A DNA stretch of 64,000 bases from a bacterium (GTDB lineage: Bacteria; Zhuqueibacterota; Zhuqueibacteria; Residuimicrobiales; Krinioviventaceae), in the NCBI GenBank assembly GCA_963674595.2, contig CAXXFV010000013.1:21261-85260 (forward strand), in the 5' to 3' direction. The position numbers and the translations under genes are program-made. The notes below the pieces were generated by a model. That model did not search any database, was not told the DNA's origin, and was given only the letters and a program-made list of their open reading frames with translations. Below, in pieces: positions 41,016 through 64,000 of this stretch (position 1 is the stretch's first letter; each line of letters starts with the position of its first letter).

Positions 41016-41567
41016 CTACCATTTTGGAGCCGATGAAAGCGAAAACCAGGATTCCTTATATTTATAAAGTTTTTCCATTGTAACAGGATGTTTTTTTGCC
41101 TGTCTTTTAACGAAATATAAATAATTCTCTTCTTTATCTATGATGATTGAATCACCATATGCAATTCCATATTCTTCCAGAATTGGTCTTCCTGTATTTA
41201 CAGGGTAAAATATTTCGGTAGTAAGAACGCTGTCATTATCAAGTTTATAATAACCAATTAAACCACCATCTGTATAATTTAAATCCTCATTTGTTAATGA
41301 ATCACTAAATAGATCACTACGGTAAACTCGTCCATTTCCCCAAAATCTATAAAAATAAAATTGAGTAGTATCAGTACCATATAATTTAGACATGTAGACA
41401 GCATTTGTATCAATATATGTCGTCGTAGATAACTGGAATGGATAATTTATAAGTTCAAATTCCGGTTTAATTGGTCGATAACCGCCACCCGGCGTTTGAT
41501 AAGCAATAGGTGAACATGATATAAATAATAATGCTATAAATACTAATTTTAAAAATAGTGATTTCAT
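41016..41567 (-). CDS. Hypothetical lipoprotein
   Basis: LFISC lipobox; FYRFWGNG...GYYKLDNDSV pattern loosely shared with 49541..50227. Confidence 0.7.
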   Translation of the reverse strand: MKSLFLKLVFIALLFISCSPIAYQTPGGGYRPIKPEFELINYPFQLSTTTYIDTNAVYMSKLYGTDTTQFYFYRFWGNGRVYRSDLFSDSLTNEDLNYTDGGLIGYYKLDNDSVLTTEIFYPVNTGRPILEEYGIAYGDSIIIDKEENYLYFVKRQAKKHPVTMEKLYKYKESWFSLSSAPKW

Positions 41568-41730
41568 CTTTATTCGACCTGGTTATAATTTAACGGCGCC
41601 ATCCATTATATATTTTAAATGGTAATCATAGCGGTACTCCCGAACCGGCACCATATTAATATAAACAAACCACACCCCATCCAATAATAATGACCGTGAA
41701 ATAACAGGAATGTGATTTTGTGAGCAACGC

Positions 41731-41852
41731 AATCTCTTCCTCGTGTAAGTATTTGAATTTCGTATTTATATAAAGGTAGTAAATCAGCCGATAACTTGAA
41801 TAGTTCCCGTGCGCGACCAAATCGTCCTAAAAAGTCGTTCGTTATGACTGAC
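41731..41852 (-). ncRNA. Candidate structured leader RNA (motif G), copy 4
   Basis: GTCAGTC.ATAAC..TAGGACGATTTGGTCGCGCACGGG..CTA..GTTAT.GGCTGATTTAC...GAGGAAGAGATT after TTGCCT-N17-TATTAT (41887-41859). Confidence 0.6.
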
Positions 41853-42355
41853 AAGATAATAATACAAATTAAATAAAAACAAGGCAAGTGGTTTTTAAAA
41901 AAAGTTGAAAATAGTGCGGGGATTTAAAATTTTAAATCCTTACATGGATTACTTTACAGAACACTGACTTGATAGAGACGTACGGCCGTGCGTCTACAAC
42001 TATGCTGCGGAACCAATGAATTCGGGATTATATCCCCAATCCAAAAGTGATTCCCTTCGAGTCTGCCCAGGGTGACACGACTCGCCTTCATCTCTCATAA
42101 AGCTCACCAAGAAGCAGAACTGTGATCATCCAGGGGTTCCTGGCCCTTGTATATAAAACATACCTTATTTATAGTCGATGCTCGCCCCGCAACTCTTTTC
42201 CGGGGCGTTAAATAAACCAGGGCATCTGCCCGGCCCCGTTCTCAAATAACGGGCCCATATAAATCATTACACCTCGGTTTATCGGGGTAAATACCCCGCC
42301 TGATGTGCGCCTTGAGAAATTTCCAAGGCGTCCAAGTAAACAAAACAAAGCGTCA

Positions 42356-44095
42356 TTATTCCGCTATTTCCAACTTGTAATAAGATTCGTTAACATATGG
42401 ATTTGGATCATAGCCCGGGTCCTGGCTTACCTTATAATCTCCCGAACCGTTTGTCCAGACACTTTGAATGGTGTTATCAAATTCCAGTAAATCATTTTTA
42501 TAGGTATCAGCATACGCATTTACACTAAAATTGTATTCGTGATAATTTTGAAACACTTGATCCTGTATGTTACTGCGATACCAATAACCATCGTTGACAA
42601 TATCTGCGGTTTCGGCCAGTGTTCTTTGAAATTGACTCTGGGATGAAGCAATGGACACCTGCCTTTGCGAATTAGCCGCCATAATAGCCTGTTGGTTATA
42701 CCATGCAGCAAATCGAGCATAGGCCTCTTTCCACGCGTTATTCCATTTAAAAGAATTGATCATCATTTGCAAAAGTGGTTGATACTCATCTTCAAAATGT
42801 TCCGGTACCTGTATCAACATAAAAGTCGCTGACCACATTTGAGTTTGAACCGCAAAATTCTGATGTATCATACCTTCGGTAAGCAGGCCAATATCGGTGA
42901 AATAAGATTTTCCATTTAAACTATTACGAATGCGAAACGTATTAGCAAAAACAAAAGCATTTGGTGCATTGTTATAATTCTGTGCTTTAATTTGATCCTG
43001 AACTTTTGTGTTCACTTTTTCTTCAAGCAATTCATATTCATCAATATAAGTCAAAAAATCAGGTAGTATAATTTGTGTTAAATAACTCTGTAACGGCATC
43101 CATTCCATTATTTTATAGCCACGGGCGGAACCATAAACAAGGTTGTGCATATTATCGTTGGACGAAAAGTAAAATTGCCTTGGAAAAATACAAAACTGCA
43201 GCTCCTCATCAGGGCTTTCGATGGCAATAGCGGGAAATGCCACAGGTGGTGTTTTGTTCCAATCCCATATAATATCTTCATACAATCCCCAGCCTTCCGG
43301 TATTAAACAGCGGGCCACTTCCATATTAAATTGCGGATCATATATTACATGCCTTTTCAATGAAAGCTTTTGCAGTTGGGCCGGCCCCTGCTGATTTTCG
43401 ATCCTATTCCGGTTTTCGTCATACCCCGTCATTTGTGTTGTCTGGGGATATTCATCATCATCATCGCCGGACTGTTGCGCCACATGGTTATTATCACGTG
43501 TTCGGGGATCTTGCCATCCCTGCATTTTAAAACTGTTCACAATACTCATCAGTCGAAACTTTTCAAGCATAAACTCATCTTTAGTGAATGCAATTCCGAA
43601 AAACAAACCGAATTCATTGTCTTTATGATATTCGAGCTGTAATTGTAACAACTGTTTTTGGTGTTCGAATTCCAATGACAGAGATACCATTTCCACACCT
43701 TTATCATTCTTGTCAGCGATAAAAGATCTATCATCCTTAGCTTGGCCAAGATCAAAAAACGGGTGTTTTCCATCAAGAAAATCGTTGATCAACTCAATAC
43801 CCGTTACACCGTCTTCAACAAAACGCGGTTGAATAATCGCAAAAACATCTTTGGATTCGGACTGGACGCATATATATTCTGAATCCACAAGGTCAACCGT
43901 CCAGTCTTTGGGGATTTCCACTGAATATCCCAGGTCCTGGTCGGTATGAGTAACCCATTGAAAGTTTTTATATTCTGCATATCCCTTTTCAGGCTCCTTG
44001 AGCATATCGGATAGATCTATGACTTGCGAGTGAGCATCAGGCATTACAGAAATCAAACCGATAAAAATTAATATTGAAAGTAAATTATATTTCAT
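42356..44095 (-). CDS. Hypothetical secreted protein, 579 aa
   Basis: Signal peptide, AGGAG RBS, two domains each starting with a (I/L)P.(D/G)W motif separated by an acidic linker. Confidence 0.75.
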   Translation of the reverse strand: MKYNLLSILIFIGLISVMPDAHSQVIDLSDMLKEPEKGYAEYKNFQWVTHTDQDLGYSVEIPKDWTVDLVDSEYICVQSESKDVFAIIQPRFVEDGVTGIELINDFLDGKHPFFDLGQAKDDRSFIADKNDKGVEMVSLSLEFEHQKQLLQLQLEYHKDNEFGLFFGIAFTKDEFMLEKFRLMSIVNSFKMQGWQDPRTRDNNHVAQQSGDDDDEYPQTTQMTGYDENRNRIENQQGPAQLQKLSLKRHVIYDPQFNMEVARCLIPEGWGLYEDIIWDWNKTPPVAFPAIAIESPDEELQFCIFPRQFYFSSNDNMHNLVYGSARGYKIMEWMPLQSYLTQIILPDFLTYIDEYELLEEKVNTKVQDQIKAQNYNNAPNAFVFANTFRIRNSLNGKSYFTDIGLLTEGMIHQNFAVQTQMWSATFMLIQVPEHFEDEYQPLLQMMINSFKWNNAWKEAYARFAAWYNQQAIMAANSQRQVSIASSQSQFQRTLAETADIVNDGYWYRSNIQDQVFQNYHEYNFSVNAYADTYKNDLLEFDNTIQSVWTNGSGDYKVSQDPGYDPNPYVNESYYKLEIAE

Positions 44096-44254
44096 AATTC
44101 CTCCTATATTAATTGTAAAAAAATAGCAATTGGTATTTAAAAATCAATTTACTCGTTCTTTTTTTCACTCCAGGAATTTCATCTCCAAAGCATTAAATAT
44201 AAAGCTGTAAAGTCAATTCATGAATTGGCCTACGACCCACCCTTAGACACTGCT

Positions 44255-44306
44255 CCCGCTTCGACCCGGTCCTTGAGCGGAGCCGAAAGGCCGCTCAGGG
44301 TAACAC
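44255..44306 (+). repeat. Repeat module I: CCCGCTTCGACTCGGTCCTTGAGCGGAGCCGAAAGGCCGCTCAGGGTGACAC
   Basis: GAGCGG-AGCC-GAAA-GGCCGCTC hairpin; copies at about 14200, 18420, 28711, 33791, 44255, 48927, 53077, 54410, 58138, 60209, 62670, 63860. Confidence 0.88.
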
Positions 44307-44661
44307 TCCCGCTCGCAGGGGATTTGCAATCCCCTGTGGAACCAATGAAATTGGGATTATATCCCCAATCCAAAAGTGATTCCCTTCGAGTCTGCTCAGG
44401 GTGAAACGGCTCGTCTTAACCTCTCACAATGTTCACAAAGCTCACAAAGAAGCAGAAATGTGATCGTCCAGGGGTTCATAGCCTTTCTCTATAAATCATT
44501 CCTTATTTATATCCGATGCTCGCCCCGGAACTCTTTTCCGGGGCGTTAAATAAACCAGGGCATCTTGCCCGGATCAATTCTCAAATAACGGGCCCATATA
44601 AATCATTACACCTCGGTTTATCGGGGTAAATACCCCGCCTGATGTGCGCCCTGGGAAAACG

Positions 44662-44744
44662 GTAGGTTGGGTTCATCTTTTTGAACCCAACATTTTCATC
44701 AGGGTTTTGTTAATTGGCGGGTCCGTGATCCGGACCCGCGCTAC
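44662..44744 (+). repeat. REPIN-like doublet L+K (GTAGGTTGGGTTC..GAACCCAAC...GGCGGGTCCGTGATCCGGACCCGCGCTAC)
   Basis: Degenerate copies at about 37588-37621, 61122-61200 and 61876-61908; overlaps the stop of 44710..45777. Confidence 0.75.
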
Positions 44745-45777
44745 TACTTCTAATGAATCTCATATTTTCAAGATATTTGATAACTTCAAGTGATATTCTG
44801 CACTTAAGATTAGAGCAATCATTTATCCAAAAAACATCCTGTTCTGAAGTTTTCTTTAAATAAAGTATACCACTCAGATTCTTAAAATATGAATTGAAAT
44901 CTTCAATATCTTTAAATCCTTTTGTAATAAAAAAGTCTTTGTTATTACGAATGATGTTTGTGAAAATACAATGAATTGTTTTACTTAGATCGAAATCTTC
45001 ATGAGTCTCGCTTGCAGAAGTAATTATAAGTAAATTTGTTTTATTGGGAATTAATTGTCTTATTTTATCAAAAATATCATCTGTAAATTTATAATATTCT
45101 TTTTGTGAGTAAAATACAGGCCTTGAAGTCAAACCATAATAGCATATAAAGCTATTGTTTGCTTTTCTAGTAGGACTTGTAACTTCCATAAAAAAGTTAT
45201 TATCAAATCCAGGAACTACAAATTCTTTAATGTCATCAGAAGATAGCTTTTGATCAAAGTTATCAACTTTTTTTTTTATAAATTTAACAATATTTGGTAT
45301 TTCATTGTGAAGTTTTGTAAAAATAGAATCATTTTTTACAGTGCAATCTATCCAGAATGAAAATGCAAGAGAAGACTTTAGATGAGATATTTGATTTTTT
45401 ATTTTTTCGTCAAACTCTTTTACCAAATCATCGTGCTGTGCACCAATAATTCTCTTCACCTCGATAATAAATTCAGTTTCATTTTTATATTGAACTAGAA
45501 AGTCAGGTTTTTTATTATATTTTTTAAATTCTTTTTCATACGTTACTGTGAAAAGTTCGTTCCTGAGTAACAAGTATGCTACTTCCATTTCGAATATCAA
45601 ATCTGACATTTCGTTTTTTTTATTGTTACAGTTTTTAATTTTTTTTCTGATTTTATCTTTATTGTACAATACAAAATTATAAAATCTATTTGATGAGATT
45701 AACCAATTTTCTACAATAGAAGTGAAATCCTTATCTCCGTTTCTGAATATGTATTTTATCAGACTGTTTTTATCCAT
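44710..45777 (-). CDS. Putative PD-(D/E)XK nuclease-fold protein
   Basis: FEMEVAYLL...YEKE...KPDFLV...IIEVKRI; very AT-rich. Confidence 0.6.
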   Translation of the reverse strand: MDKNSLIKYIFRNGDKDFTSIVENWLISSNRFYNFVLYNKDKIRKKIKNCNNKKNEMSDLIFEMEVAYLLLRNELFTVTYEKEFKKYNKKPDFLVQYKNETEFIIEVKRIIGAQHDDLVKEFDEKIKNQISHLKSSLAFSFWIDCTVKNDSIFTKLHNEIPNIVKFIKKKVDNFDQKLSSDDIKEFVVPGFDNNFFMEVTSPTRKANNSFICYYGLTSRPVFYSQKEYYKFTDDIFDKIRQLIPNKTNLLIITSASETHEDFDLSKTIHCIFTNIIRNNKDFFITKGFKDIEDFNSYFKNLSGILYLKKTSEQDVFWINDCSNLKCRISLEVIKYLENMRFIRSSSAGPDHGPAN

Positions 45778-45848
45778 TATATTTCCTGTTTAGGAACCTC
45801 TGTGCGATCATAACCTGCAATGGTGCGGTAGAACCGCAACCTACAGAC

Positions 45849-45955
45849 TGATCCGTTCTCAAATAACGGGCCCATATTAATCATTAAACCTTAAACTTAT
45901 CGGGATAGATACCTCGCTTGATTTACGCCTTGGGAAACATTCCCAAGGCGAGCAG
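45849..45955 (+). repeat. Repeat module D: (TAAAACAGGGCATCTTGCCCTG)ATCCGTTCTCAAATAACGGGCCCAT...TATCGGGGTAAATACCCCGCC...CGCCTTGGGAAACATTCCCA(A/T)GGCG
   Basis: Copies at about 18162, 21232, 26896, 42208, 44545, 45849, 54566, 57092, 58264, 59240, 62878; fragments at about 6590, 14019, 26671, 39095, 49083, 50369, 60356, 61855. Confidence 0.92.
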
Positions 45956-45963
45956 AAACAAAT

Positions 45964-46560
45964 TTAAGTATAATTAATCTTCTCTAATTCTAAGATTAAA
46001 CCAATGTTTTTAAATGAAATGTTTGCAATCTTAGAAAAATCAAAAAAGGCCTCACCAGTCGAATTTCCTCCACTAGTAATTATAACTTCTTCTCTTAATG
46101 GCTCTGTCCTTTTACAATTATAACCAGTTAAATTCCAAACTTGTTCTTTTGTAATTACTTGAAAATTATTACTATTATTTTCAAAGGGAAAGGCAATTTC
46201 AATTATTGGAATATTAGCAAGATGGTAATTATCCAGCATTAGTTCAATTTTATTAAGAGAAAAGATTGAATCAGTATTATTTTCAATTTTAAAACTAGTT
46301 AATACACATTCATACTCTTTGCTTATTTTGTAATAAAACACAGAAAAATTAAAATTAATTTCATCAATTTCTAGTGTAAGTCCATTATTTTCTAACACAT
46401 AGAAAGCTTTATATAAAATATCTTTTATACACAACTCTCTATCAAAAGATCTATATTCCTTAAATAAATTGATTTTATTTTGAATATGCCCACAGTGTGG
46501 ACAGTAATTAAAAACATTCATTGCTTTTTCATTACAATTTCTACAAATTATATAATCCAT
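45964..46560 (-). CDS. Hypothetical protein with N-terminal zinc ribbon
   Basis: CRNC-X9-CPHC; AAGGAG RBS before ATG 46560 (track 46620). Confidence 0.7.
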   Translation of the reverse strand: MDYIICRNCNEKAMNVFNYCPHCGHIQNKINLFKEYRSFDRELCIKDILYKAFYVLENNGLTLEIDEINFNFSVFYYKISKEYECVLTSFKIENNTDSIFSLNKIELMLDNYHLANIPIIEIAFPFENNSNNFQVITKEQVWNLTGYNCKRTEPLREEVIITSGGNSTGEAFFDFSKIANISFKNIGLILELEKINYT

Positions 46561-46642
46561 TTTTACTCCTTGTAAAATAAATACAAAAAATATTTCAGAA
46601 TGTAATATATATGTCTTCATAACCTTTTAGAAAGATTTATAA

Positions 46643-46773
46643 GTTGTAGGCCGGATTTTCTTGTTGAACCCGGCAATAGAAATAACCGGAAGGAAAATAT
46701 TTATACAAGTATTACAAAATTAATAAAAATAAGTATCAAATAAATGATGGGCCAAAATGGCCCATCCTACACC
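46643..46773 (-). repeat. REPIN-like doublet, inverted copy of 37353-37478
   Basis: Reverse complement aligns across both hairpins and the AT-rich core. Confidence 0.85.
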
Positions 46774-46793
46774 ATTTCAAATTGAAAATTAAT

Positions 46794-47543
46794 TTATTTT
46801 CCAATTAATGCTTGCAAATTTATGGAGAAACCTGCTTCTACAAGTTCTTGTGCAAGTTTTGTTTTCCATGCACCTGATTTATCAATTTCAGTATATACAA
46901 CGCCCTGATAGTCTGATGGTATTTCAACTCCTGCCTTATATAATGCGCACACTCTTTGTCTTCCTAATTTCCCTAAGAAATAACCTAATTCCATTATAAC
47001 GTTTTGGCGAGCTCGATCATTTATTGAATTTGAATTATCTTTTGAACCACCAACATCGTCAGGTGTTAAAAGCACAACTGCAAATCCTACATCTGAGAAG
47101 ACTTCAAATTTTTCAATTATTGTTTTTCCACTATTGGCTTGTTCATGGAGAATAATAGGCGCTAATTTTAATTTCTCTATAAATCTAGCCACGGACTCTT
47201 TTGTTTCTGCATCATGCCCATGAACAATAAACACTTTATTCGTTTTTGTAAGTGCTGCTTGATTACTCGACGAATCTTGAGTATCCATTGTTTTGCTTCT
47301 TATAATATTAGACTCTGCTTTCAATACAAGTCCTTCAAGGTAACCTATTTGACTTGGAAGGGAACTTTCCCATGATGAGAATCTATCAGGGCCCAATGAT
47401 AAAAACTTTTCTGCCACTTCAGAACTGATTGCAATTTTTAAAAACATATTTACACGTGAGAGCCAATTCTGATATTGACTGCTAACTTGACAAGACCAGC
47501 CAGACTCTATTATGTCATTAATCTTTCCTACAAGTTTCTCCAT
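46794..47543 (-). CDS. TIR-like nucleotide-binding protein (CAP12/PF10137-type TIR)
   Basis: KVFIVHGHD...IILHEQANSGKTIIEKFE...FAVVLLTPDD...RARQNVIMELGYF...IPSDYQGVVY; start at 47543 by RBS (track 47615). Confidence 0.88.
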   Translation of the reverse strand: MEKLVGKINDIIESGWSCQVSSQYQNWLSRVNMFLKIAISSEVAEKFLSLGPDRFSSWESSLPSQIGYLEGLVLKAESNIIRSKTMDTQDSSSNQAALTKTNKVFIVHGHDAETKESVARFIEKLKLAPIILHEQANSGKTIIEKFEVFSDVGFAVVLLTPDDVGGSKDNSNSINDRARQNVIMELGYFLGKLGRQRVCALYKAGVEIPSDYQGVVYTEIDKSGAWKTKLAQELVEAGFSINLQALIGK

Positions 47544-47702
47544 AAAATTCCTTTCAACCTGCCATGTATTACTTTTCCAGTGCGTTAGATAAATATGGGG
47601 CTTTGTTTTGTTCAATTCTGATGGTATTTTATACCTACAAATGCTAAGCCTTTACTTTATTTACTCCCAGCAGATTTCAACCTCCTGGCGTGTTGCTCTT
47701 AG

Positions 47703-48560
47703 TTATAAAACCATTTCTTTGTATTCAGATGAGTCTCTATGTTTTTCTTCACTAAAAATCAAGTGTAGGCTATAGTACTTATAAACTTCTACGGCTAGTT
47801 TATCTGCTTGTGAACTTCCTAATAATCCTTTGTAAAAAATCTTCACTCTATTATTTTCAATAGGTCCTAATTCAAAATAGCCATCAATCCTATCGCCAAT
47901 AAAATTATATAGTTGTTGTAGCATATCCGACGAATTCCACTTTAAAGAACTTTTCGATATAGTCTTTTTGTCTATTTCACCAATTTTGTCTTTGAGTGAA
48001 TCGATTTGGAGGCTAAGGTAGTCTAATTTAGCATCAGTTCCTGTCTCTCCCTCATAGGGTCGAGCTGATGATCTTAACCCGAAGTAACGCCAAAGTGTAT
48101 TTACACCTTTGCTCCTCACTTCTGTTACGCGGATGTGTTCAGCTAGCTTTTTGATTTCATTTTCCAGTTCCCACGGTTCGATGGAACTCTTGTATTCTTG
48201 ATAATTAAGAATTCCAGTATCGAAAGGTATCTTTTGCGTGTGCTCATCTTTAACAACACAGACAGATTTGTTCAAAGAAGTCCTTATTCCAAATTCAAAG
48301 AATACATTTGGATTTAGGCAAGACATGTCACAAAGGACAAGATCAGCCATTTCCAGGTTGCGAATAATTTCTGCGTGAATAAGATCTGAACCCTTTGCAA
48401 TAGGTGTTATTGGCTCATATCCCGCAGCTAAAACAGATGGCGTAAAAAGGCATTGCAAAACATGCATAAAGTGATCTGAACCATCCCTATACTTTTCAAG
48501 CTGTGTATCAGGTGTAGTTATAGGCATAATAATAAAGCAAGTTTTATCGTTCTTGGGCAT
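47703..48560 (-). CDS. Nucleoside 2-deoxyribosyltransferase-like (NDT/TIR-like fold) protein
   Basis: KTCFIIMPI...ADLVLCDMSCLNPNVFFEFGIR...IPFD motif. Confidence 0.75.
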   Translation of the reverse strand: MPKNDKTCFIIMPITTPDTQLEKYRDGSDHFMHVLQCLFTPSVLAAGYEPITPIAKGSDLIHAEIIRNLEMADLVLCDMSCLNPNVFFEFGIRTSLNKSVCVVKDEHTQKIPFDTGILNYQEYKSSIEPWELENEIKKLAEHIRVTEVRSKGVNTLWRYFGLRSSARPYEGETGTDAKLDYLSLQIDSLKDKIGEIDKKTISKSSLKWNSSDMLQQLYNFIGDRIDGYFELGPIENNRVKIFYKGLLGSSQADKLAVEVYKYYSLHLIFSEEKHRDSSEYKEMVL

Positions 48561-48694
48561 CCTGGAATCTCCATCCTTATTTTGCTGAGTAACAATATAT
48601 TATTGTACAACTCTATCAACTAAACATACTACACTTCACCACACCCAAAATATCTAACCGTAAACCAACAGGAATATGACTCTCTAACCGACTC

Positions 48695-48819
48695 AATCTC
48701 TTCCTCGTAAGTACTAAAACTTCCCATATATAAATTTAAAATGAGGTAAATCAGTTTAAGGTTTTCAGGCTCTCCCATGCGCGACCAAATCGTCCTGAAA
48801 AATCGTCCTTTTGTCTGAT
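48695..48819 (-). ncRNA. Candidate structured leader RNA (motif G), copy 5
   Basis: ATCAG..AAGG..TTCAGG.ACGATTTGGTCGCGCATGGG..CCTGAA..CCTT..CTGATTTACC...GAGGAAGAGATT after TTGCAC-N17-TAACAT (48854-48826). Confidence 0.6.
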
Positions 48820-49134
48820 AAAAGAATGTTACAAATTTTGTGTTATTAGTGCAAGCGGTTTTTAAATATGTTTAAAATAAGTGTAGGGGTAGAATATCCT
48901 TTAGGGTAAATAACCTGCCTTCTGCTCCCGCTTCAAGTCCGGTCCTTGAGCGGAGATGAAAGGCCGCTCAGCGTGACACATGCTCACCTTACCCTCTCAC
49001 AATGTTCACAAAGCTCACAAAGGTTGATTAAAATTGTTATTTCTCTGTGTGCCTTGTGTGCTTTGTGTGCTTTGTGAGGGTTTGAATAAAACAGGGCAGG
49101 ATATTCATCGTATCGTACGGTTAATTTAAAAAAA

Positions 49135-49401
49135 TCAAGTGTCTTTCATTGGATTTTCATGAGGATAACAGCAAAGAACATTATCCATGTATTCAATTCC
49201 ACAAAAATATTTACAGATTGATATATTTTTTACAGCACATTTATGAGTATCTGTTTTTTCATATTTATTCCACGGACAAACATCTTGCTCCCAGGATATA
49301 TCAGCTTTATTGGAACAAATATCTATGTCCATATTTGCACCATCAAGTTTTTTTATTTCAATACCTTTTTTTTCATTTAATAATTTTAAATACCTTTCCA
49401 T
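49135..49401 (-). CDS. Small Cys-rich hypothetical protein
   Basis: CPWN...CAVKNISICKYFCG...LCCYP; same strand as its neighbours. Confidence 0.6.
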   Translation of the reverse strand: MERYLKLLNEKKGIEIKKLDGANMDIDICSNKADISWEQDVCPWNKYEKTDTHKCAVKNISICKYFCGIEYMDNVLCCYPHENPMKDT

Positions 49402-49540
49402 GTTAAATATACATTATGTTTGGTGATTCTCTTAGTTGCAGGTGCAGTTTTGCGGCACCGTTTAGATAATTTTTTATTAATCCTCATACAATGCTACAGC
49501 AGAACCTCATCCTACTGACTAGAAAATAGAATTCTCACGA

Positions 49541-50227
49541 TTAATTAAAATCCAACAATGGAATATAAACCGGGGGCCACCATTTTGATTTAAAAACCCG
49601 AGAACGAATTGTTGGATTAAGTGAATCTGGTTTTTGAGCATATTGACGGAATTGATATACGTCGTTCTCTTGACCAGTTAAACCTTTTAAAAGAATAAAT
49701 GTAGAGTCATTTTTAATAATACCAATTGTTTTCTTTAACTCGTAAGGCACAATAGGAAGAATATTACCAGAGGAAGCTAATTTGTAATGATACAAAATTA
49801 GAGTATCACCGACTATATGATAAACGCCCCAATCCTGAACATCCTTTTTATATTTTTTTGAATGTTTTTTCAATACTTTATAAAATGTTTCATGAGCACA
49901 TTCAAATGTATTATATTCTTGGATATCATTTGAACTATGCTTTTGTTTAAATGAATCCCAACCAAGTCCAGATATACTGCCTGTCATTACATAAGCTGTA
50001 CCATTTTTATATAGGATAATTGGTTTGATGGATTTTTTATTTTCACAAGTACTTGAATTATAGGTGTATTCATAGTAATAGTACCCATTACATTTTAGTC
50101 TATTTATTATCTTTTCATTATCGTTTTTATAATCAACGAATTTATTCTTTTTATAAACAATACTACACGAATTTAAAAATAATAGAATAATACATAAAAC
50201 ATATATGTATAGCTTCCTATTATTCAT
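49541..50227 (-). CDS. Hypothetical lipoprotein
   Basis: FLNSC lipobox, GGAGG RBS. Confidence 0.72.
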   Translation of the reverse strand: MNNRKLYIYVLCIILLFLNSCSIVYKKNKFVDYKNDNEKIINRLKCNGYYYYEYTYNSSTCENKKSIKPIILYKNGTAYVMTGSISGLGWDSFKQKHSSNDIQEYNTFECAHETFYKVLKKHSKKYKKDVQDWGVYHIVGDTLILYHYKLASSGNILPIVPYELKKTIGIIKNDSTFILLKGLTGQENDVYQFRQYAQKPDSLNPTIRSRVFKSKWWPPVYIPLLDFN

Positions 50228-55046: not shown

Positions 55047-55182
55047 AAATTATAATTTTCGTTCCTCTCTGGAATTCCACTCCAATACGTTAATTAAAAA
55101 TTTGTAAGGGTACATATCCTGTAGGGACACTTTATAAATTGCCCTTATGTCATCCCGAGTGATTACAAGGAATGTTCTGCTC

Positions 55183-56906
55183 GGGGCTGTATCAAAAGTT
55201 CTTTATAATAAGATAAAAAATAAGTATAATTTTAAAAAAAGGAAAGTAATACGAGTAGGAGCGGATGAAAAAGTTTAGAGAAGTCCATCAGAACCAAATA
55301 ATGTTATTGCCACCGAGCCTGGATGAATTTATAGACAAAAACCATCTGGTCCGGGTATTGGATTCTGTAATAGATCGAATTTCTTCAAAATCCATAGAAG
55401 ATCGTTTTAGCGGAGGCGGCACACCGTCCTATCATCCGCGAATGATGCTCAAAGTTATTTTATATGCTTATATTTGCCATATTTATAGTTGTCGTAAAAT
55501 CGCCAAAGCACTGCGTGAAGATTTACCCTTTATGTGGCTTTCCGGTATGAGCCGTCCTGATTTTAATACAGTAAATCGTTTTCGCAGTGAGTACTTTCGC
55601 AACACGATGGAAGATATTTTTAGCCAGGTATTGCTGTTTTTAGAAGCAGAAGGCTATATTGATTTAAAAGATTATTTTGTTGATGGCAGTAAATTTGAGG
55701 CAAACGCAGGTAAATACACCTACGTGTGGAGAAAAAATACCGAACGTTATAAAGCCGCTGTAAAGCAACGGGTCCAATCCCTATTTCACGAGATTGATGA
55801 GCTTAATGCTGAAGAGGACTTGAAATATGGGGAAAGCGATCTACCGGAGCGGGGAGAGCATTCGGACATCACGGCTGAGAACATTGAAAAGGTTGCAGAA
55901 GAAATCAACGAACGACTGGAAAAAGAAGGGAATAAGAAAAAGGCCCGCTCTTTAAAAAGCCGGGCCAACAAGCTGAAGAAGGAATCGGAAAAATTGGCCA
56001 AATATGAGGACCAGGAAAATAAACTTGCCGGCCGCAACTCTTATTCCAAAACAGACACCGACTCAACCTTTATGCGAATGAAAGATGAAACGCTTCGGCC
56101 TGCCTATAATGTGCAAATCAGTACCAACCACCAATTTCTTGTCAATTATTCTGTTGGTCAAAATGCATCGGACTCAGCCAGCTTTCCAGCCCATCTTTTC
56201 AAGATCGTCAAGCGGAATGAAAAATTTATTCCAGAGACCTATACCGGAGACTGTGGCTATGGCAATCATGAAAACTATTTACTTTTGTCTGAATATAAAA
56301 TAGAAAACTTTTTGAAATATGGTTCGTTCCATCGAGAACAAAGCCGTAGTTTTCGTCAAAATATCTTTCATCGAGATAATATGAGATATGATAAGCAGCA
56401 GGATTGCTTCTATTGTCCGGCAGACAGAGCGCTCTGGTTCCGGGATATAAGGACCAGGAAAACAGCAACAGGGTTCCTCAATCAACAACGTGTTTATGAA
56501 TGTGAAGATTGTGGCGGTTGTTCACATGCCGAAAAATGTAAAAGAGGTGCTGGCCATCGAACAGTGCAGATAAATCGTGAATTGGAAAAATTCAAGGCAA
56601 AAGCCCGCGAGAATTTGAATTCTGAAAAAGGTATAAAACTCCGTAAAAAAAGAGGCAATGAAGTTGAAACCCCATTTGCTGATTTCAAGAAAAACCAAAA
56701 ATTCAGTAAATTTAGTTTAAGGGGAATTGAAAAAGTAAACCATGAATTTGGGTTGCTATGCTTGGCATTTAATATCCGAAAATACTATAAAAAATCAGGA
56801 AATTAAAAAAATATAAAGCCCGCTTCTCTTAAAGCAGGCTTCATTTCTAAATAATACTAAAATTACTTTATTGAATTGCAGTTTTTTGGGCTTTTGATAC
56901 AGCCCC
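55183..56906 (+). mobile_element. IS1182-family insertion sequence, about 1.72 kb
   Basis: Perfect terminal inverted repeats GGGGCTGTATCAAAAG (55183-55198) and CTTTTGATACAGCCCC (56891-56906) around a single transposase; no target duplication seen. Confidence 0.93.
55265..56806 (+). CDS. IS1182-family DDE transposase
   Basis: YHPRMMLKVILYAY...SCRKI...WLSGMSRPDF.T..RFR, VDGSKFEANA, SKTDTDS, GDCGY, YCP..CxxC..C, VETPFA. Confidence 0.95.
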   Translation: MKKFREVHQNQIMLLPPSLDEFIDKNHLVRVLDSVIDRISSKSIEDRFSGGGTPSYHPRMMLKVILYAYICHIYSCRKIAKALREDLPFMWLSGMSRPDFNTVNRFRSEYFRNTMEDIFSQVLLFLEAEGYIDLKDYFVDGSKFEANAGKYTYVWRKNTERYKAAVKQRVQSLFHEIDELNAEEDLKYGESDLPERGEHSDITAENIEKVAEEINERLEKEGNKKKARSLKSRANKLKKESEKLAKYEDQENKLAGRNSYSKTDTDSTFMRMKDETLRPAYNVQISTNHQFLVNYSVGQNASDSASFPAHLFKIVKRNEKFIPETYTGDCGYGNHENYLLLSEYKIENFLKYGSFHREQSRSFRQNIFHRDNMRYDKQQDCFYCPADRALWFRDIRTRKTATGFLNQQRVYECEDCGGCSHAEKCKRGAGHRTVQINRELEKFKAKARENLNSEKGIKLRKKRGNEVETPFADFKKNQKFSKFSLRGIEKVNHEFGLLCLAFNIRKYYKKSGN

Positions 56907-57253
56907 GGAACCAATGAATTCGGGATTTTATCCCCAAATCCAAAAGTGCCTCCCTTCGACTACGCTCAGGGTGACACCGCCAACAGCAAAGGGTGAAAAG
57001 CCTGCCTTCATCTCTCACAATGTTCACAAAGCTCACAAAGATTGATTTGAATTGTTATTACTTTGTGTGCTTTGTGCGCTTTGTGAGGGCGTTAAATAAA
57101 ACAGGGCATCTTGCCCTGATCCGTTCTCAAATAACGGACCCATATGAATCATTAAACCCTTGCTTTATCGGGGTAAACACCCCTCCTAATTTGCGCCTTG
57201 GGAAACATTCCCATGGCGAGTAGAAGGCTAATTATATTAAAATGATAGCCATA

Positions 57254-57952
57254 CTATTTTTTTAATCTTAGAACGACTGTTCCGGCAATTAAATCATGTA
57301 ATGCTCTCCTCTTATCACTAAATAACATTGTTATTATATCGAGTATTGACCATATAGACATTAATACTCCGAGAAACAATAAGAAATAGTTAAATAGAGT
57401 GATATTTTTATTAATACCGGATACAAATATTACATATAAAACGATGCTGCTAAATAATGGGACAATATCTCTCATAAGAGCCTGTTTATACGTAATTTCT
57501 TTTTTTTCACTCTTGTCAAATATCTTTACATCCATTAGCATCTTACCAAATGTTTGCCCAAATTTTCCATGTAACACTATATAATAAATATGTGGTAGAA
57601 ACGTTGATAACACAGTACCAAATGTAATAAAAACATCCAATGAAAATTCCAACAAAAATTTTATTAAATAACCAACGATGCCAATAAATATACCGTCAAT
57701 AAACAACGAAAAATATCTAGGCCAAAATGTCTTATATTTTTCAGTAGCATTTATCCCCTTTGTTTTTCTCTCTTCCTCTAAAATATTTTTTTTTATATTC
57801 AATAAATTTTCGTCTGCTTCATTTCTTTCAGATAAGATATCAATTGCCAAAGTTATCATTTCATTATTCGATTCCGGATTGTTTATTATTAACCTCAGAA
57901 TATCAGATGATTTTCTCCGATACATTTTTAAATAGATATTATTACTTTCCAT
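57254..57952 (-). CDS. RDD family membrane protein
   Basis: FWPRYFSLFIDG...GQTFGK...R...RRALHDLIAGTVV. Confidence 0.9.
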   Translation of the reverse strand: MESNNIYLKMYRRKSSDILRLIINNPESNNEMITLAIDILSERNEADENLLNIKKNILEEERKTKGINATEKYKTFWPRYFSLFIDGIFIGIVGYLIKFLLEFSLDVFITFGTVLSTFLPHIYYIVLHGKFGQTFGKMLMDVKIFDKSEKKEITYKQALMRDIVPLFSSIVLYVIFVSGINKNITLFNYFLLFLGVLMSIWSILDIITMLFSDKRRALHDLIAGTVVLRLKK

Positions 57953-58433
57953 AATAATCTTTCGTTTTATTTTAAATAATATTTACAGGTATAACGGGGA
58001 ACTCAGCTGACCTGGGCAAACATTCAATATCTCTGCTCGCAGGGGATTTGCAATCCCCTGTGGAACCAATAAATTCGGGATTTTATCCCCAAATCCAAAA
58101 GTGCCTCCCTTCGACTCAGTCCTTGAGCAGAATCCGGGCGGTCCTTGAGCGGAGCCGAAAGGCCGCCCAAGGTGACACCGCTCGGTTTCGACTCTCACAA
58201 TGTTCACAAAGCTCACAAAGATTGATTTGAATTGTTATTCCCTTGTGCGCTTTGTGAGGGCTTGAATAAACCAGGGCATCTTTCCCTGATCCGTTCTCAA
58301 ATAACAGGCCTATATTAATCATTAAACCGTTGGTTTATCGGGGTAAATACCCCGCCTGATTTGCACCTTGGGAAACATTCCCATGGCGAGCAGTAAAAAC
58401 AAAAAATTTTTTTAATTTCATTTTTTAGTTCCT

Positions 58434-59087
58434 TTAGTAATAATAATTAAGCATGAAACAAGAGGTTATATATTTTGCATCGACACCTAATATTCCAGAT
58501 AAGGTGTCAACACTTCCATAAAGATCAATCCGGGTTTGCCATTCAATGGAAAACCTGTCGAACTTTTTCCCGAAACCGATGCGGACATCAATAGTAGAGT
58601 TCTCGATTGCAGGTATAAATTTATCATATGCAGGGGAGTAGTCTGCATTTTCTTTTGGAAAATCTCCAGGATCATCTCGAAAAATAATAGAAATTTTCGA
58701 TTTATCAATGATTGCCAAACATGGCGCCAAAGCGGCTGTAAAATAAATTTTTTTCTGTCCCGCAAACATATAATTATACTTGATTGGAAAGGTCAGGTAC
58801 GCTACCTGCCAGTCAGCATTAAGCTTTGTCAACCATTCTTCACCGTAAACATACTTGTTTTCTACCCGTGCGCCTCTGTGTAAATATTCAATTCCGAATG
58901 AAAAATAGCTCCTTTCACTTTTTCTCCACTCCTTACCCAATTCTATCGAAAAACCGGGCAATATTTTGGAATCGTTATTATAAAATGTAGACAAATTAAA
59001 TCCTGCACTAATGTATTTTTTAGATGCATAGCTTTGTATTGGTAAGAAGACCAATAAAATAAAAAGGATTAACTTTTTAATTTTCAA
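58434..59087 (-). CDS. Outer-membrane beta-barrel (PorT/porin-like) protein
   Basis: Signal peptide, AGFNLS, EYLHRG, YLTFPI, aromatic C-terminus. Confidence 0.7.
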   Translation of the reverse strand: MKIKKLILFILLVFLPIQSYASKKYISAGFNLSTFYNNDSKILPGFSIELGKEWRKSERSYFSFGIEYLHRGARVENKYVYGEEWLTKLNADWQVAYLTFPIKYNYMFAGQKKIYFTAALAPCLAIIDKSKISIIFRDDPGDFPKENADYSPAYDKFIPAIENSTIDVRIGFGKKFDRFSIEWQTRIDLYGSVDTLSGILGVDAKYITSCFMLNYYY

Positions 59088-59374
59088 ACTCCTTTAAGTT
59101 AAAGATAATTATTCAAAACCAATTTAGGGCGGCACACCGCTAAATATACCATCAAAAAGAAATATGTTAACACATTGTTTAATTATAAATAAATCGATGA
59201 ATTTTCTTTGTAACACAAACTTATCGATTATAAAAGTCATTAAATAAAACAGGGCATCTTTCCCTGATCCGTTCTCAAATAACGGACCCATATGAATCAT
59301 TAAACCCTTGCTTTATCGGGGTAAACACCCCTCCTAATTTGCGCCTTGGGAAACATTCCCATGGCGAGCAGTGA

Positions 59375-60055
59375 CTAATTAGATTTTAATTTATTAATCT
59401 CTAATAATCTCTGATTCACTATTTCTGTATCTTCAAGTTTTTTTCTAATATCAATTTCCTTGTTAAAATAGAATATAGCTGAATCAGCAAGATTTTGCTG
59501 TAGATAGTTATTTCCAATCCACATCAATGCATCTGCGGTTCTATCACTCTTGTCTCCAAAAGATTTACTGGAGAGTCTATAGTATTCTTGTCGATATTTT
59601 AATGCATCACGATTCTGACTGTTTTGTTCAAGACATTCTGCTAATTGAAAGAGAGTTTCTCTAAAAGTTTTAGTATCTTGAAGATTATTAATTACTCCAA
59701 TTTGGTACGCTCGCTGGTATAAATCAATAATTTTTTCTTTGTTATAAGAATCTTTAGTATTTGCGTAATCCATATTGGTCACACGAAAACAAAGAGCAAC
59801 AAAGTTTATAATTTTCGCATGTTGAGGTTCTTTACTTTTTAATAAACCAAAAACCTTGTCAGCTTGTAGTTTTAAGCTATCAAAATTAATTATATTATCA
59901 CAATTATAAATCATTCTCAGCTTTGAATATTCAATTCCCAATTCTGATTTCTCAAATTCTTTAGGAAATTTAATATCATACAACCGATTTCTTTCTTCAT
60001 TTGCCGAACATGATATTAAAATAAATATGATTAATATGAATAGTATATTTTTCAT
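59375..60055 (-). CDS. TPR-containing lipoprotein
   Basis: LISC lipobox; helical TPR-like segments (TADALMWIGNNY...A..YF.K...I). Confidence 0.72.
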   Translation of the reverse strand: MKNILFILIIFILISCSANEERNRLYDIKFPKEFEKSELGIEYSKLRMIYNCDNIINFDSLKLQADKVFGLLKSKEPQHAKIINFVALCFRVTNMDYANTKDSYNKEKIIDLYQRAYQIGVINNLQDTKTFRETLFQLAECLEQNSQNRDALKYRQEYYRLSSKSFGDKSDRTADALMWIGNNYLQQNLADSAIFYFNKEIDIRKKLEDTEIVNQRLLEINKLKSN

Positions 60056-60503
60056 AACATTAAAATCAAGATGGTACTTGATCGCCCAATGGTTTATAGC
60101 CCTTCTTTATCAAACATTCCTTATTTACAGCCATTATATGTAAAGGCCAAGCCTTTACTTTGTTACGTCAAGAGGCAGGAACCTCTTGCCGATCATATCG
60201 ATTACCCTCCCGCTTCGACTCGGTCCTTGAGCGGAGCCGAAAGGCCGCCCAGCGTGACACATGCTCACCTTACCCTCTCACAATGTTCACAAAGCTCACA
60301 AAGGATGATTAAAATTGTTATTTCTTTGTGTACCTTGTGTACTTTGTGAGGGCTTGAATAAAACAGGACATGTGCCCCGCTCTGTTCATTATTGTCCGAA
60401 TCACGAACCCATACTATCGCGCAAATTAAATAATGCTGAGGAAAAGGATCCCCAGGCATTGGACGTTCTGCAAGTTAATCGTTAATACTGTTTATACACA
60501 AAA

Positions 60504-61100
60504 TTAATAACAATAATAATACCATTGATCGTCAATTTTTTTTAGTTTTTTAGTAGAATGAAAATATCCATTTTTAAATCTTTTGGCAAACAATTCTATA
60601 TATTTCTCCGGGACATAAATTAAACCCGACGAATGATCTCTCTTTCGATCAATCTCAAAATAAACAGATTCTTTTTCCGTTCTCATGTAATCAATTTCAT
60701 TTTCATATAAAAACGACAACCATTTATATAATTCATCCACACTCAAGTTATGCTGCTTCTCAAACCAGGATAAATCTGAACGAACAGGCGGGCGATGATT
60801 TCCGTTCATCCAAATATTAAACTCTATATTATCTGAATGTTTTAACATGTCCATTAAATTAATATTTATACTCGTACATTTATAACCTTCTATAAAAAAA
60901 GTCTTTTTATTTTTATCAAGCAGGCTAATACAATAAATTTTACGTTGATTACAATAATCATCTGCTGTTGCTTCCAAAACAACTCTGTTCTTATCTATCT
61001 TTTCTTTAAATATTTGATACTCGTAATCCTTTTCAAAATATTTACAACAACATATCGGAACAATTATTAACAAAATCCTGACAATGTTTCTATTTTGCAT
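60504..61100 (-). CDS. Hypothetical exported protein or lipoprotein
   Basis: Hydrophobic N-terminus ending in CCC; C-terminal GLIYVP...KKIDDQWYYY. Confidence 0.65.
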   Translation of the reverse strand: MQNRNIVRILLIIVPICCCKYFEKDYEYQIFKEKIDKNRVVLEATADDYCNQRKIYCISLLDKNKKTFFIEGYKCTSININLMDMLKHSDNIEFNIWMNGNHRPPVRSDLSWFEKQHNLSVDELYKWLSFLYENEIDYMRTEKESVYFEIDRKRDHSSGLIYVPEKYIELFAKRFKNGYFHSTKKLKKIDDQWYYYCY

Positions 61101-61199
61101 TTTTAAAATCTCCCAATACCCTGGTTGCAGATCAGATTAATCTTTTGAACCCAGCATGTTCACCAGGATTGTGTTGATGGGTGTGGCCGTATCACGGAC

Positions 61200-61769
61200 C
61201 TAAGCGATCCATAACATTAATGATTTTGCAATTTTCCATCCGCTGCTGTCTTTTTTAAGCATGATAAGCTGGCCGGCTGCACTTAAAGGGGCTGAAAAAT
61301 CTGTAAAATAAACCAGTCCCTGATCCCTCAGGATATTAAAACCAACCTGTGAAAAATGAATCAGCGCATAAGCATTTGGATGTAATTCTTTCCATTGGTT
61401 TGCATTTTCTTCATCAATTAAATAACATGTAACTTCCAGGTTTGGTATACCCATTAATTCAATTTTATTTTGATTTTTGGCAAGATAATCTTGTATAGTA
61501 CTATTCTGCAAATCAGGAAAATGTTCTTTGATATAATCAATTTCATCTGAAATATCATAGAATAACGTAGAATCACCTAAAACAAACACAGGATTAGCAC
61601 TATCTTTGTGTAAATTTAAAGCGGCGGTGTAAACAAAATAATCCAGAGTATTGCCGGTCTCTTTGGTTTCTATAATTCCGGTAATATCGTCCTTATCCCG
61701 TTCGCAATTAAACAACATTGTTAAACTGACGATCAATAATAATGTTAACAAAAATAATCGTTTTAACAT
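61200..61769 (-). CDS. Hypothetical lipoprotein
   Basis: MLFNC lipobox-like; FSQVGFN...GLVY...MLKK...WKI C-terminal motif; start at 61769 by RBS. Confidence 0.7.
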   Translation of the reverse strand: MLKRLFLLTLLLIVSLTMLFNCERDKDDITGIIETKETGNTLDYFVYTAALNLHKDSANPVFVLGDSTLFYDISDEIDYIKEHFPDLQNSTIQDYLAKNQNKIELMGIPNLEVTCYLIDEENANQWKELHPNAYALIHFSQVGFNILRDQGLVYFTDFSAPLSAAGQLIMLKKDSSGWKIAKSLMLWIA

Positions 61770-61913
61770 GACTGTTCCCTCCATTATCTATGATATAAAA
61801 TAATTTTAACAGATTTCTATATCCACAACACAAACCGCCGGGTGTGCAGCATATTTCGGGGTAAATACCCCGGTGAATTGGCGGGGCCGGATTATGGACC
61901 TAGCCTGCTAATT

Positions 61914-62510
61914 TCATTTTTTATCAACCCAATAACACTTGTATTTTGTAAATGTACTATTCTCTTTTTTAAAATGAAATTCAAATTTCCATTCTCCGCG
62001 TTTCCCATCAATAAAACTGTTAAAACCATACGGATAATCAACAAATCCGTCTTTTTGGATCAGTTGATGAAATAAAAACCTGGATTTGTATAAAGAAGGA
62101 TGTATGACAATGATTGAATCCAGCATAATTTCATCATATAAAAAATGGCTCTGAAAATGCAAGGCAACGCTGTCAACATCATAATAATGAATTCGATATC
62201 CCATAAGAATTTTCGAGCTGATCAAGGTAATATCAAGTTCTTTAGTTTGATTTTTACCCAGAACAACGTTAACAAGCGTGTCTTCATAACTTGCATGAAA
62301 TAGTTTAATATCATAATTACCATCAGGCATATTCTCAATTACAAATGGTGTTTTTTTATCAATATATTTGTTATTTAAAATAATACCTGCTCCTTCAGGA
62401 GTCGACGTTATTGAAATTTTGCCTTGATTTTCATTTTCACTGTCTGCCGGATTTTTAGAACAGGAAAAACAAATAAACATGACAAGCAAACAGACAACAT
62501 TTTTTTTCAT
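61914..62510 (-). CDS. PEGA-domain lipoprotein
   Basis: CFSC lipobox; GKISITSTPEGAGIILN...KTP...GNYDIKL. Confidence 0.85.
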   Translation of the reverse strand: MKKNVVCLLVMFICFSCSKNPADSENENQGKISITSTPEGAGIILNNKYIDKKTPFVIENMPDGNYDIKLFHASYEDTLVNVVLGKNQTKELDITLISSKILMGYRIHYYDVDSVALHFQSHFLYDEIMLDSIIVIHPSLYKSRFLFHQLIQKDGFVDYPYGFNSFIDGKRGEWKFEFHFKKENSTFTKYKCYWVDKK

Positions 62511-63010
62511 ACTGGCCCCATAATTTTAGTTATTTTTGGTCTTCCAGGGATTTCTACCCCCCGGACGAATTAACGAAAGTGCCTGGCCCTCCTATATAAA
62601 ACATTTCTTATTTATGGTTGTAATGTATAAAAACGTTTCTACGCCCACTCTTCAACTCCGCTTGGCGTCCGCTTCAAGTCCGGTCCTTGAGCAAAACCCG
62701 GGCGGTCCTTGAGCGGAGTCGAAAGGCCGCTCAGGGTGACACCCGCCAACAGCGAAGGGTGACACCCGCTCGCCTTACCCTCTCACAATGTTCACAAAGC
62801 TCACAAAGGATGATTTAAATTGTTATTTCCTTGTGCACGGAGTGTGCTTTGTGTGCCTTGTGAGCTTTGTGAGGGTTTGAATAAGCCAGGGCATCTTGCC
62901 CTGATCCGTTCTCAAATAACAGGCGCATATTAATAATTAAACCTCGGTTTATCGGGTTAGGTTCCCCGCCTGATTCGCGCGTTGGGAAACATTTTCAGGG
63001 GCGTGAATAA

Positions 63011-63715
63011 TTAAAAAGTTCGTTTACATGCAGCAGTACAATCAAGTCCCTCTGGACATTTTTCATACTCCCAAATAACATCAAATAAACGCGTTAGGGC
63101 GTTATACATATCATCATTTGTACCATATTTAAAAATCCGACTTTCTAACCCATCTTTATTTGTTTCATACGGTGTAAAATATGCAACTCGTTCAGTTATT
63201 ACAATCCTACCAATATGCGGTGTGTTAAAACATTTTATTTTGATTTTTTTGGATGTATCATGATTTATAATAGAATTTTGCGTCTCTAAAATGTCGTTTT
63301 TTAAATTACCTCTATATGCTTTACTGGCAGTTTCTAATTCAGATTGCCTGTGGGCAGTCCAATCAGTTTCATCTGAAGTAAAGATTGTTCTAGGCAATAG
63401 AATACGAATTGAGTCTTTGTTCTTGCTGTTTTCATAAATTTCTTGAAATTTGGGACCTTTTCTCAAGTCTAATCCTCTTCCGGTTAGTATAGCAATATTT
63501 TTTGCTTTTTTTAATTCTATTTGCAAGTCTTCTACAACATCTTCCGAATTTTTAAATATATTTTTTATCTCAATGCCAAGGACTTTTCCTAAAATGTTAG
63601 AAACTATTTTTTTTCCTGATTTTTTTACAAACAAATCTGAAATAGCCTTTATAATAAAATATGCAATTAAGGAAGCTAATATTCCCATGATGAGTGCCAT
63701 CTGCCATTTTTCCAT
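63011..63715 (-). CDS. N-terminal TM plus PLD-like (DUF5919-type) domain protein
   Basis: TM helix, then IAILTGRG, IRILL, RIVIT...YFTPY, FDVIWE pattern; no HKD motif. Confidence 0.5.
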   Translation of the reverse strand: MEKWQMALIMGILASLIAYFIIKAISDLFVKKSGKKIVSNILGKVLGIEIKNIFKNSEDVVEDLQIELKKAKNIAILTGRGLDLRKGPKFQEIYENSKNKDSIRILLPRTIFTSDETDWTAHRQSELETASKAYRGNLKNDILETQNSIINHDTSKKIKIKCFNTPHIGRIVITERVAYFTPYETNKDGLESRIFKYGTNDDMYNALTRLFDVIWEYEKCPEGLDCTAACKRTF

Positions 63716-64000
63716 TTTCACTCCAAATTTATTATAGTATTTTTATTTTAATTTTTAAAAATTTACATGAATAGGTTAAGGCTAATCCTAAAATTACTTT
63801 TCCAAGGCGTTAAATAAAAAGTTGAATTGGCAATTCATGAATTGCCCTTCCTGTCATCCCGAGCGGAGTCGAAAGGCCGCTCAGGGTGCCACCACCAACA
63901 GCGAAGGGCAAAAGGCTCGCCTTCATCTCTCACAATGTTCACAAAGCTCACAAAGGATGATTAAAATTGTTATTTCTTTGTGTGCCTTGTGAGCTTTGTG

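Follow-up and report, generated by a model that had tools for sequence, protein, structure and literature searches.

Repeat-spaced accessory genes and candidate integron remnants in a genome of the phylum Zhuqueibacterota

The DNA analysed here, referred to as the window, is a stretch of 64,000 nucleotides from a bacterium of the family Krinioviventaceae (phylum Zhuqueibacterota; assembly GCA_963674595.2). It corresponds to positions 21261-85260 of contig CAXXFV010000013.1, designated C13 of genome G000, and it terminates with the contig. The subject of this analysis is an array of accessory genes at 41016-63721, transcribed from the minus strand and separated by mosaics of repeats, and its relation to integrons. 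The array is the densest part of a repeat zone of approximately 500 kb extending over contigs C26, C13, and C29. It consists of 20 minus-strand open reading frames (ORFs) of 88-617 aa and of one plus-strand transposase gene belonging to an insertion sequence (IS) of the IS1182 type. Two ORFs, 53466-54041 and 53195-53476, look like the halves of a single RHS-repeat lipoprotein gene frameshifted at a run of six G, and the gene count is therefore 19. The G run, at 53466-53476, could be a slippage switch or the result of simple decay.

The median GC content of the array ORFs is 0.303, as compared with 0.393 for 4567 ORFs of the genome, and 19 of the 20 fall within the lowest GC quartile of the genome. 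Almost all the spacers (20/21) match DNA elsewhere in the genome. A model had described this region from its letters alone (the sequence-only reading) as an array of 19 co-oriented, AT-rich orphan genes with repeat spacers, and in this respect the array is real. The genes are mutually unrelated. Pfam cut-offs are passed by a CAP12-type TIR domain and by RDD, TPR, PEGA, ankyrin, and RHS domains, and an outer membrane protein (OMP) barrel match lies slightly below its cut-off. The TIR, RDD, TPR, and PEGA labels of the sequence-only reading thus stand, whereas the NDT (E 0.038), Imm58 (E 0.23), and PD-(D/E)XK labels (a TnsA-type domain, E 0.007) are weak. The TIR protein corresponds to PADLOC PDC-S35 and forms with the NDT-like protein a defence-type pair at 46794-48560 (minus strand; Pfam and PADLOC). 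For 63011-63721 and 42356-44095 the protein atlas returned no name, and a scan of the window with Rfam returned three matches only, at chance level.

The repeats are not restricted to the array, as they fill the whole window, and the same architecture spans about 500 kb in both orientations. Contigs C13, C26, and C29 hold 139 of the 197 repeat loci of the genome, and a genome-wide intergenic spread is not observed: 255 of 313 full 20-kb bins are without a copy. C13 and C26 overlap by 107 nt. Since the window reaches the contig end, the array is truncated on its upstream side. Modules occur at only two of 74 contig ends, the right end of C13 and the left end of C29, and the two fit an internal copy with a gap of 65-80 nt, which suggests that C13 joins C29. 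C29 starts with minus-strand genes leading back to an integron head at 6727-7202. The idea that a replication origin explains why the coding strand changes on C29 was discarded: dnaA lies on C4, and the skew roughly fits one replichore. On the other side, IS aside, the minus-strand run extends left to 28782. At the left edge of the AT-rich array, 39467-40901 contains two HU-like genes, one of which is fused to a membrane anchor and to a LysM-like region.

The spacers were analysed with profiles built from 21 module seeds and scanned over the genome. Their organization is regular. The order of modules is fixed (promoter before leader, 69:0; I before J, 24:0; G before F, 25:0), oriented clusters are co-directional with the downstream gene in 191 of 217 cases, and a modelled module starts within 100 nt after the stop codon in 16 of the 19 gene ends tested. 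The spacers are likely gene-less remnants of an integron integrase gene (intI), of genes for REP-associated tyrosine transposases (RAYTs; REP, repetitive extragenic palindrome), and of a GxxExxY gene, with likely parents in the same genome. All module coordinates given below refer to the minus strand.

The promoter-leader module corresponds, as alignment indicates, to the intI 5′ end. An intact IntI is encoded on contig C3, the only match to TIGR02249 above cut-off; its gene is transcribed toward attI, and cassettes follow downstream in the same direction. The head consists of the promoter, the ribosome-binding site, a TTG start, and about 15 decayed codons. It precedes the intact intI of C3, an intI pseudogene on C6, and the deletion at C29:6727-7202. 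Leader-bearing loci in the genome number 69, and at these the promoter, whose activity is predicted from its sequence, stands before non-homologous genes, as is expected of a mobile promoter. Both TTG and the HIP motif were found in 25 copies, and in 23 of these they are separated by the same 18 nt as in intI. From the 69 leader copies extracted, 37 had a recognisable anchor, and 17 of these carry, at the intI offset of 24 nt, a block (consensus KFLGWVR) resembling the KLLDQVR of relatives' integrases (p 2e-8 versus a downstream control). For the C3 leader and three leader copies of the window, the predicted fold is no more stable than that of shuffled sequences (z 0.2 to 1.4, one −0.4). No gapped palindrome or repeat common to the head and to lexA or recA was found that could represent a LexA box, a weak test because recA lies in an operon.

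Four copies of the head are present in the array. The head at 41642-41913, upstream of the lipoprotein gene 41016-41567, has promoter, leader, ribosome-binding site, TTG, and decayed codons reading LLLDGVW, and matches the C3 intI upstream region at 71% over 171 nt. The head at 48620-48880, upstream of the NDT-like and TIR genes, matches at 74% over 202 nt. At 54173-54363 (78% over 124 nt) an A-type REP cuts the head just past the TTG start, and at 52919-52993 only the promoter remains, an A-type REP cutting after the −10 box. The sequence-only reading had proposed that some modules supply a promoter and a leader, and this is supported in the form of candidate intI 5′ ends. Its statement that the array has neither integrase nor attC was also borne out, as no intI was found in the window and no attC after any of the 20 ORFs. 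Just outside the array, at 38864-39081, a promoter module, an A-type REP, and a decayed attI-like site of type K precede a rhodanese-TauE pair.

The head at C29:6727-7202 is homologous to the C3 integron (86% at attI, 80% at the promoter). Here some 44 nt stand in place of about 970 nt of intI, while attI and the last intI codons remain. This deletion is covered by one contig from run X1, which may be the source sample. The attI, at C29:6727-6835, points toward the array by way of the inferred C13-C29 join. The first C29 cassette has an intact attC, and of the second only the R″ is left, beside IS insertions. The sequence-only reading had named attC sites with an intI next to the window as counting against its proposal. 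Half of this was found, because attC and attI are present, about 7 kb past the contig break if the join holds, and intI is deleted; the array itself accordingly has no adjacent intI that would make it a complete integron. The heads at C3, C9, C10, C25, and C29 lie within related prophage-like units, whereas most heads lie outside a prophage context and are fused to REP modules.

The attI-like sites fall into two families, the C3 type and type K. Matches at E<0.9 number 22, about half of them weak and eight being training copies, and 12 of the 22 have a co-oriented head no more than 200 nt upstream. Alignment indicates that several of these sites are followed by attC cassettes whose core is complementary to that of the site. 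The type-K sites C29:61650 and C10:48953 have a core perfectly complementary to the R″ found after the next gene, and a whole or half attC comes next; a third site, C13:9706, is comparable and decayed. This argues that type K is, or was, a working attI. Within the array, a putative decayed type-K site at 52852-52903 lies directly upstream of the gene 52400-52846 (hidden Markov model (HMM) of five full copies, E 3.6e-5), and a second at 52312-52368 lies upstream of the ankyrin gene (E 4e-4). The latter, together with the adjoining A-type hairpin, constitutes a 69-nt direct repeat around the gene 52400-52846. At the stop codon of this gene, at 52394-52400, an R″-type GCCTAAC represents a candidate cassette scar, the remainder of attC being replaced by an A-type REP. 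Bases one to four of the scar are complementary to the final four bases of the decayed attI core upstream of the gene, and the heptamer is found near only 4 of 2582 control gene ends. This is the only scar-bearing gene among the 19 of the array, and for no other window gene does the integron route appear directly visible. Most array genes are therefore assigned to the repeat route or to scar loss.

Decay of attC can be followed in 12 identifiable cassettes, five with decayed and seven with intact or near-intact attC. Decayed attC sites are followed by an A-type REP in four of the five cases by HMM; in the fifth, split by IS1182, this is seen only by eye. None of the seven intact or near-intact sites is followed by such a REP, and the background in the zone is 16 of 391 ORFs. 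It may be supposed that insertion of the REP caused the decay of attC and thus locks the cassette in place.

RAYT genes flanked by dispersed hairpins, the mark of a REP/RAYT system, are present in this genome: the I-J, G/F, and M/N modules match the flanks of three of them. In the I-J module at 42179-42330 the two ends of a RAYT gene, left and right, are joined, with its last codons kept (74-93% to the flanks of the RAYT at C29:188857-189408), and the alignment identifies I-J as a RAYT from which the coding sequence is deleted. I-J occurs in 8 of 21 array spacers, the further copies being at 44517-44657, 45850-45953 (partial), 54583-54691, 57086-57220, 58257-58391, 59240-59369, and 62889-63003. 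The G/F hairpins at 44308-44374 correspond to the flanks of the RAYT at C26:88026-88496, with others at 42008-42045, 56891-56944, 58035-58090, and 50283-50315 (decayed). The M/N module at 60097-60195, and also at 62550-62623, corresponds to the flanks of the RAYT at C29:40576-41121. The H module at 63927-64000, within which the contig ends, matches the flanks of the GxxExxY gene at C18:86830-87210 and is found in eight spacers; no module other than H is attributed to the C18 locus, which is mosaic too. For the A-type REP, the genome holds no RAYT or RAYT fragment with A flanks. Two GIY-YIG genes, checked as possible parents of D and E, do not show such flanks, so that modules D, E, and A are left without a known parent. 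Short hairpins first read as mini-attC sites proved to be GTAG-type REPs.

Repeats also mark differences in gene order. Direct repeats of 52-342 nt stand on both sides of five genes, and for three of these genes the two copies are the best-scoring partners found. The frameshifted RHS-repeat lipoprotein gene (53131-54173 with its repeats) lies between copies of a 52-nt direct repeat of the A-type REP (53131-53182 and 54122-54173, 88%). A gene of 579 aa (42005-44658 with its repeats) lies between copies of a 325-nt repeat (42005-42319 and 44334-44658, 88%), and at 56907-59372 one I-J copy after another encloses the RDD and OMP genes (342 nt at 79%; 133 nt at 91%). Across the zone, the best-matching spacer is the neighbour in 23 of 169 cases, where about two are expected. 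For comparison with other samples, 4 of 10 listed sequencing runs were set against 44001-64000, excluding records that match only at a repeat. Among the matches listed, six gene-bearing contigs from runs X3, X4, and X5 (97-99.6% identity) leave the window sequence at eight points. The divergent sequence at five of these consists of at least 400 letters or of other modules. Five of the eight breakpoints lie inside modelled modules (p ~0.03 at 25% cover), and a sixth lies 16 nt off, at an IS boundary. An X4 contig of 1198 nt has a head, a K site, and the 44629-44749 repeat around about 1 kb unlike the window. At window position 61475, record 25 of run X5 shows repeat modules breaking into the lipoprotein gene 61200-61784, with 3.3 kb of different DNA after them. 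The gene-shuffling platform of the sequence-only reading therefore holds in part: the bracketed genes and the divergence of three other samples at modules agree with it, and five of the eight points fall inside modules, where it would place breakpoints.

Its further proposal, REP mosaics as a dedicated substitute for attC, is not supported, as the junctions are without a fixed crossover point and the modules are remnants of RAYT, GxxExxY, and intI genes. A related explanation is that a RAYT, acting as an HUH nuclease, captures genes by cutting single strands at CA or CT by REP hairpins and inserting gene-plus-REP circles, the REPs being equivalent to attC. The zone has three related RAYTs, of which two are full length, with HUH and tyrosine motifs, the direct repeats bracket genes, and several A-type junctions start, by eye, at CAG just 5′ of the G(T/C)AG tag; according to PMC8266576, TnpA-REP cleaves at CT or CA. 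This explanation is nevertheless improbable. No RAYT of the genome has A-type flanks, and the bracketing repeats vary in type and length, so that homology fits better than a fixed site. Moreover, no case was found in which another gene takes the position of the RAYT coding sequence between I and J, and no report of gene capture by a RAYT was found in the open-licence literature.

Taken together, the best reading of the locus is a decayed and dispersed integron system in which attC sites were overwritten by REPs and genes reshuffled by recombination between repeats. We consider it reasonably probable that the array, the downstream part of a repeat-filled accessory zone, grew through integrase-less heads catching cassettes via the intact IntI, together with recombination between same-direction repeats. 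Initially, the integron of the prophage-like units would have lost intI and its head would have multiplied. The attI-bearing heads would then have caught cassettes, presumably through IntI in trans, and REPs would have overwritten their attC sites. Finally, RAYT- and GxxExxY-derived modules would have fused with the heads into same-direction blocks, which would offer homology for gene duplication, deletion, and exchange. That IntI acted in trans, and that RecA or a RAYT made the exchanges between repeats, we infer. A stronger version, and a tentative one that we hold to be less probable than the growth of the array just described, is a "distributed integron": a single IntI would serve tens of integrase-less heads (intI promoter plus attI) over half a megabase, the heads catching and expressing cassettes, a REP locking each attC, and RAYT-derived spacers copying and swapping the units.

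Several observations weigh against this best reading. The alignment being too poor for a covariance model of attC, a rule-based scanner and a weight matrix were used; the scanner detects both sites of the intact integron, another four elsewhere in this genome, and four in the relative G009. After the array ORFs it finds no attC (0/20, relaxed threshold included), and the left-arm weight matrix gives nothing over the 99th background percentile on the array. Complementary cassette cores occur in 1 of 18 array ORFs, as compared with 4-7% in the background and 4 of 8 known cassettes. None of the type-K copies has an intI beside it, the downstream control for the KLLDQVR block is not matched to its G-rich composition, and no bridging contig among those listed supports the C13-C29 join. 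Within C13, adjacent and distant spacers share repeats at 0.43 versus 0.38, with no excess. Of the remaining two breakpoints, one is inside a gene and one at a stop codon in an unmodelled hairpin; the contigs of other samples have a depth of 2-5, for which reason the breakpoint evidence is moderate, and spacer identity drops anyway. The relatives available for comparison are 18 genomes of the family and 166 of the phylum, none from the same genus. Relatives of the NDT-like gene are themselves attC cassettes at only 1 of the 31 loci examined (33 returned).

Part of this evidence bears on a further alternative, a single long classical cassette array downstream of the C29 attI in which all attC sites have eroded. 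A CALIN, a group of attC sites with no integron integrase, contains two or more attC sites, and none of the 20 array ORFs is followed by one. Because of this, and because complementary cores are at background level, the array is not a CALIN. The attI, the intI deletion, and the one intact attC cassette do point toward the array, and the gene content is cassette-like. Apart from the lack of attC and of any scar excess, the internal heads and attI-like sites imply several separately added units, and the same architecture extends over the zone in both orientations. An eroded CALIN is therefore very unlikely, the least probable of the explanations considered here.

Another alternative is an ordinary, horizontally acquired variable region in which REP-like modules and intI heads have piled up in tolerant spacers without causing any gain of genes. 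Co-oriented runs are common in this genome, with same-strand runs of at least 19 ORFs making up 50 of 862, so that co-orientation alone is unremarkable. Eighteen of the 19 genes are without a cassette scar. The REPs stand right after stop codons, a location typical of REPs, and REP-like hairpins were seen by eye after NDT-like homologs in 3 of the 31 loci of other genomes. Conversely, the rare repeats that bracket single genes are mutual best matches (the 52-nt and 325-nt pairs, rank 1), the attI-like sites with matching cassette cores indicate that heads captured genes, and the breakpoints of other samples favour modules. Passive accumulation thus appears unlikely, although less so than capture by a RAYT.

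Searches beyond the species gave few matches. The spacer 54041-54704 has a weak match in 1 of the 18 family genomes, and the spacer 57953-58433 has matches of 26-67 nt in 4 of the 166 phylum genomes. The type-K pattern was found in none of the 166, and the intI head gave chance-level matches only outside the species. The J pattern was absent from metagenome and viral contigs and the leader pattern from viral contigs; five viral type-K matches were rejected as chance matches in coding sequence. Relatives of the TIR gene occur in 3 of the 166 phylum genomes, and two were scanned, neither having attC. The RDD gene has no relative in the 166 genomes or in metagenome contigs, while the NDT-like gene has close relatives in many phyla. 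The array genes come from a mobile pool that is only sometimes cassette-borne.

Other features of the zone and genome deserve a short description. The IS1182 of the array (55183-56906, plus strand) is one of five near-identical copies in the genome and sits between repeat modules D and G. The three copies of the zone, on C13, C26, and C29, lie in or beside repeat modules (G or A), and they are recent, since they are 98-100% identical. At C29:8785-9410 (locus L056), a repeat block of about 298 nt is present about 2.1 times in tandem inside a prophage-like remnant; the modules therefore amplify without cargo too. A tandemly duplicated toxin-antitoxin pair at C29:48870-50840, which we take to be RelE/HigA-like, is bracketed by intI-head modules. 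The intact integron at C3:108050-115820 (L058) has a terminase-like gene on one side and, on the other, a partial portal-like gene with a CRISPR array after it. In six relatives (L020, L024-L027, L029), a conserved ORF of about 110 aa lies between intI and attI; it is absent from the C3 integron. Finally, C17:82800-86800 contains many short tandem matches to an internal segment of the RAYT at C16:568563 and is probably a REP array.

The link to integrons, missed by the sequence-only reading, consists of the intact IntI, the intI-derived promoter module, the attI-like sites inside the array, and, if the C13-C29 join holds, the nearby C29 integron with its attC cassette and deleted intI. If the proposed history is true, integron activity can leave large arrays invisible to attC-based tools such as IntegronFinder, including its CALIN mode, and the integron share of accessory genomes would therefore be undercounted. 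It would also provide a concrete source for a "mobile promoter" family, the truncated intI head, and a testable route from cassette to fixed gene, the insertion of a REP into attC. Neither the amplification of intI-stump heads nor the insertion of REPs into attC was found described in the open-licence literature. The parts are each known singly; their combination was not found in that literature and has so far been observed in one species.

As regards known systems, the genome's intact C3 integron has the same layout as Treponema-type integrons, in which intI is transcribed toward attI (PMC3607928). The array fails the definitions of both integron and CALIN; in its working it is like an integron array, and part of its ancestry lies in integron components. 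The likeness to the CALIN and In0 elements of PMC4889954 is that attI, attC cassettes, and loss of intI occur here too. Mobilisation of CALIN cassettes in trans is proposed in that paper and stated in 10.1101/2025.06.18.660453. Whereas a CALIN consists of attC without intI, this genome shows the reverse, with tens of promoter/intI-stump heads, about 20 attI-like sites, and almost no attC. With the REPs, bacterial interspersed mosaic elements (BIMEs), and REP doublets forming hairpins (REPINs) associated with RAYTs (PMC8266576 and PMC3184786), the array shares hairpins from RAYT flanks, mosaics after stop codons, and IS hits. Unlike those, its modules have intI, a GxxExxY gene, and three or more RAYTs as their sources, and they are joined in constant order and orientation, occur within a single accessory zone only, and are associated with decayed attC. 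The putative mobile promoters of PMC3575422 resemble the heads in that one promoter-leader is reused before unrelated genes; unlike them, the source is here identified as the 5′ end of intI, often with an attI-like site downstream.

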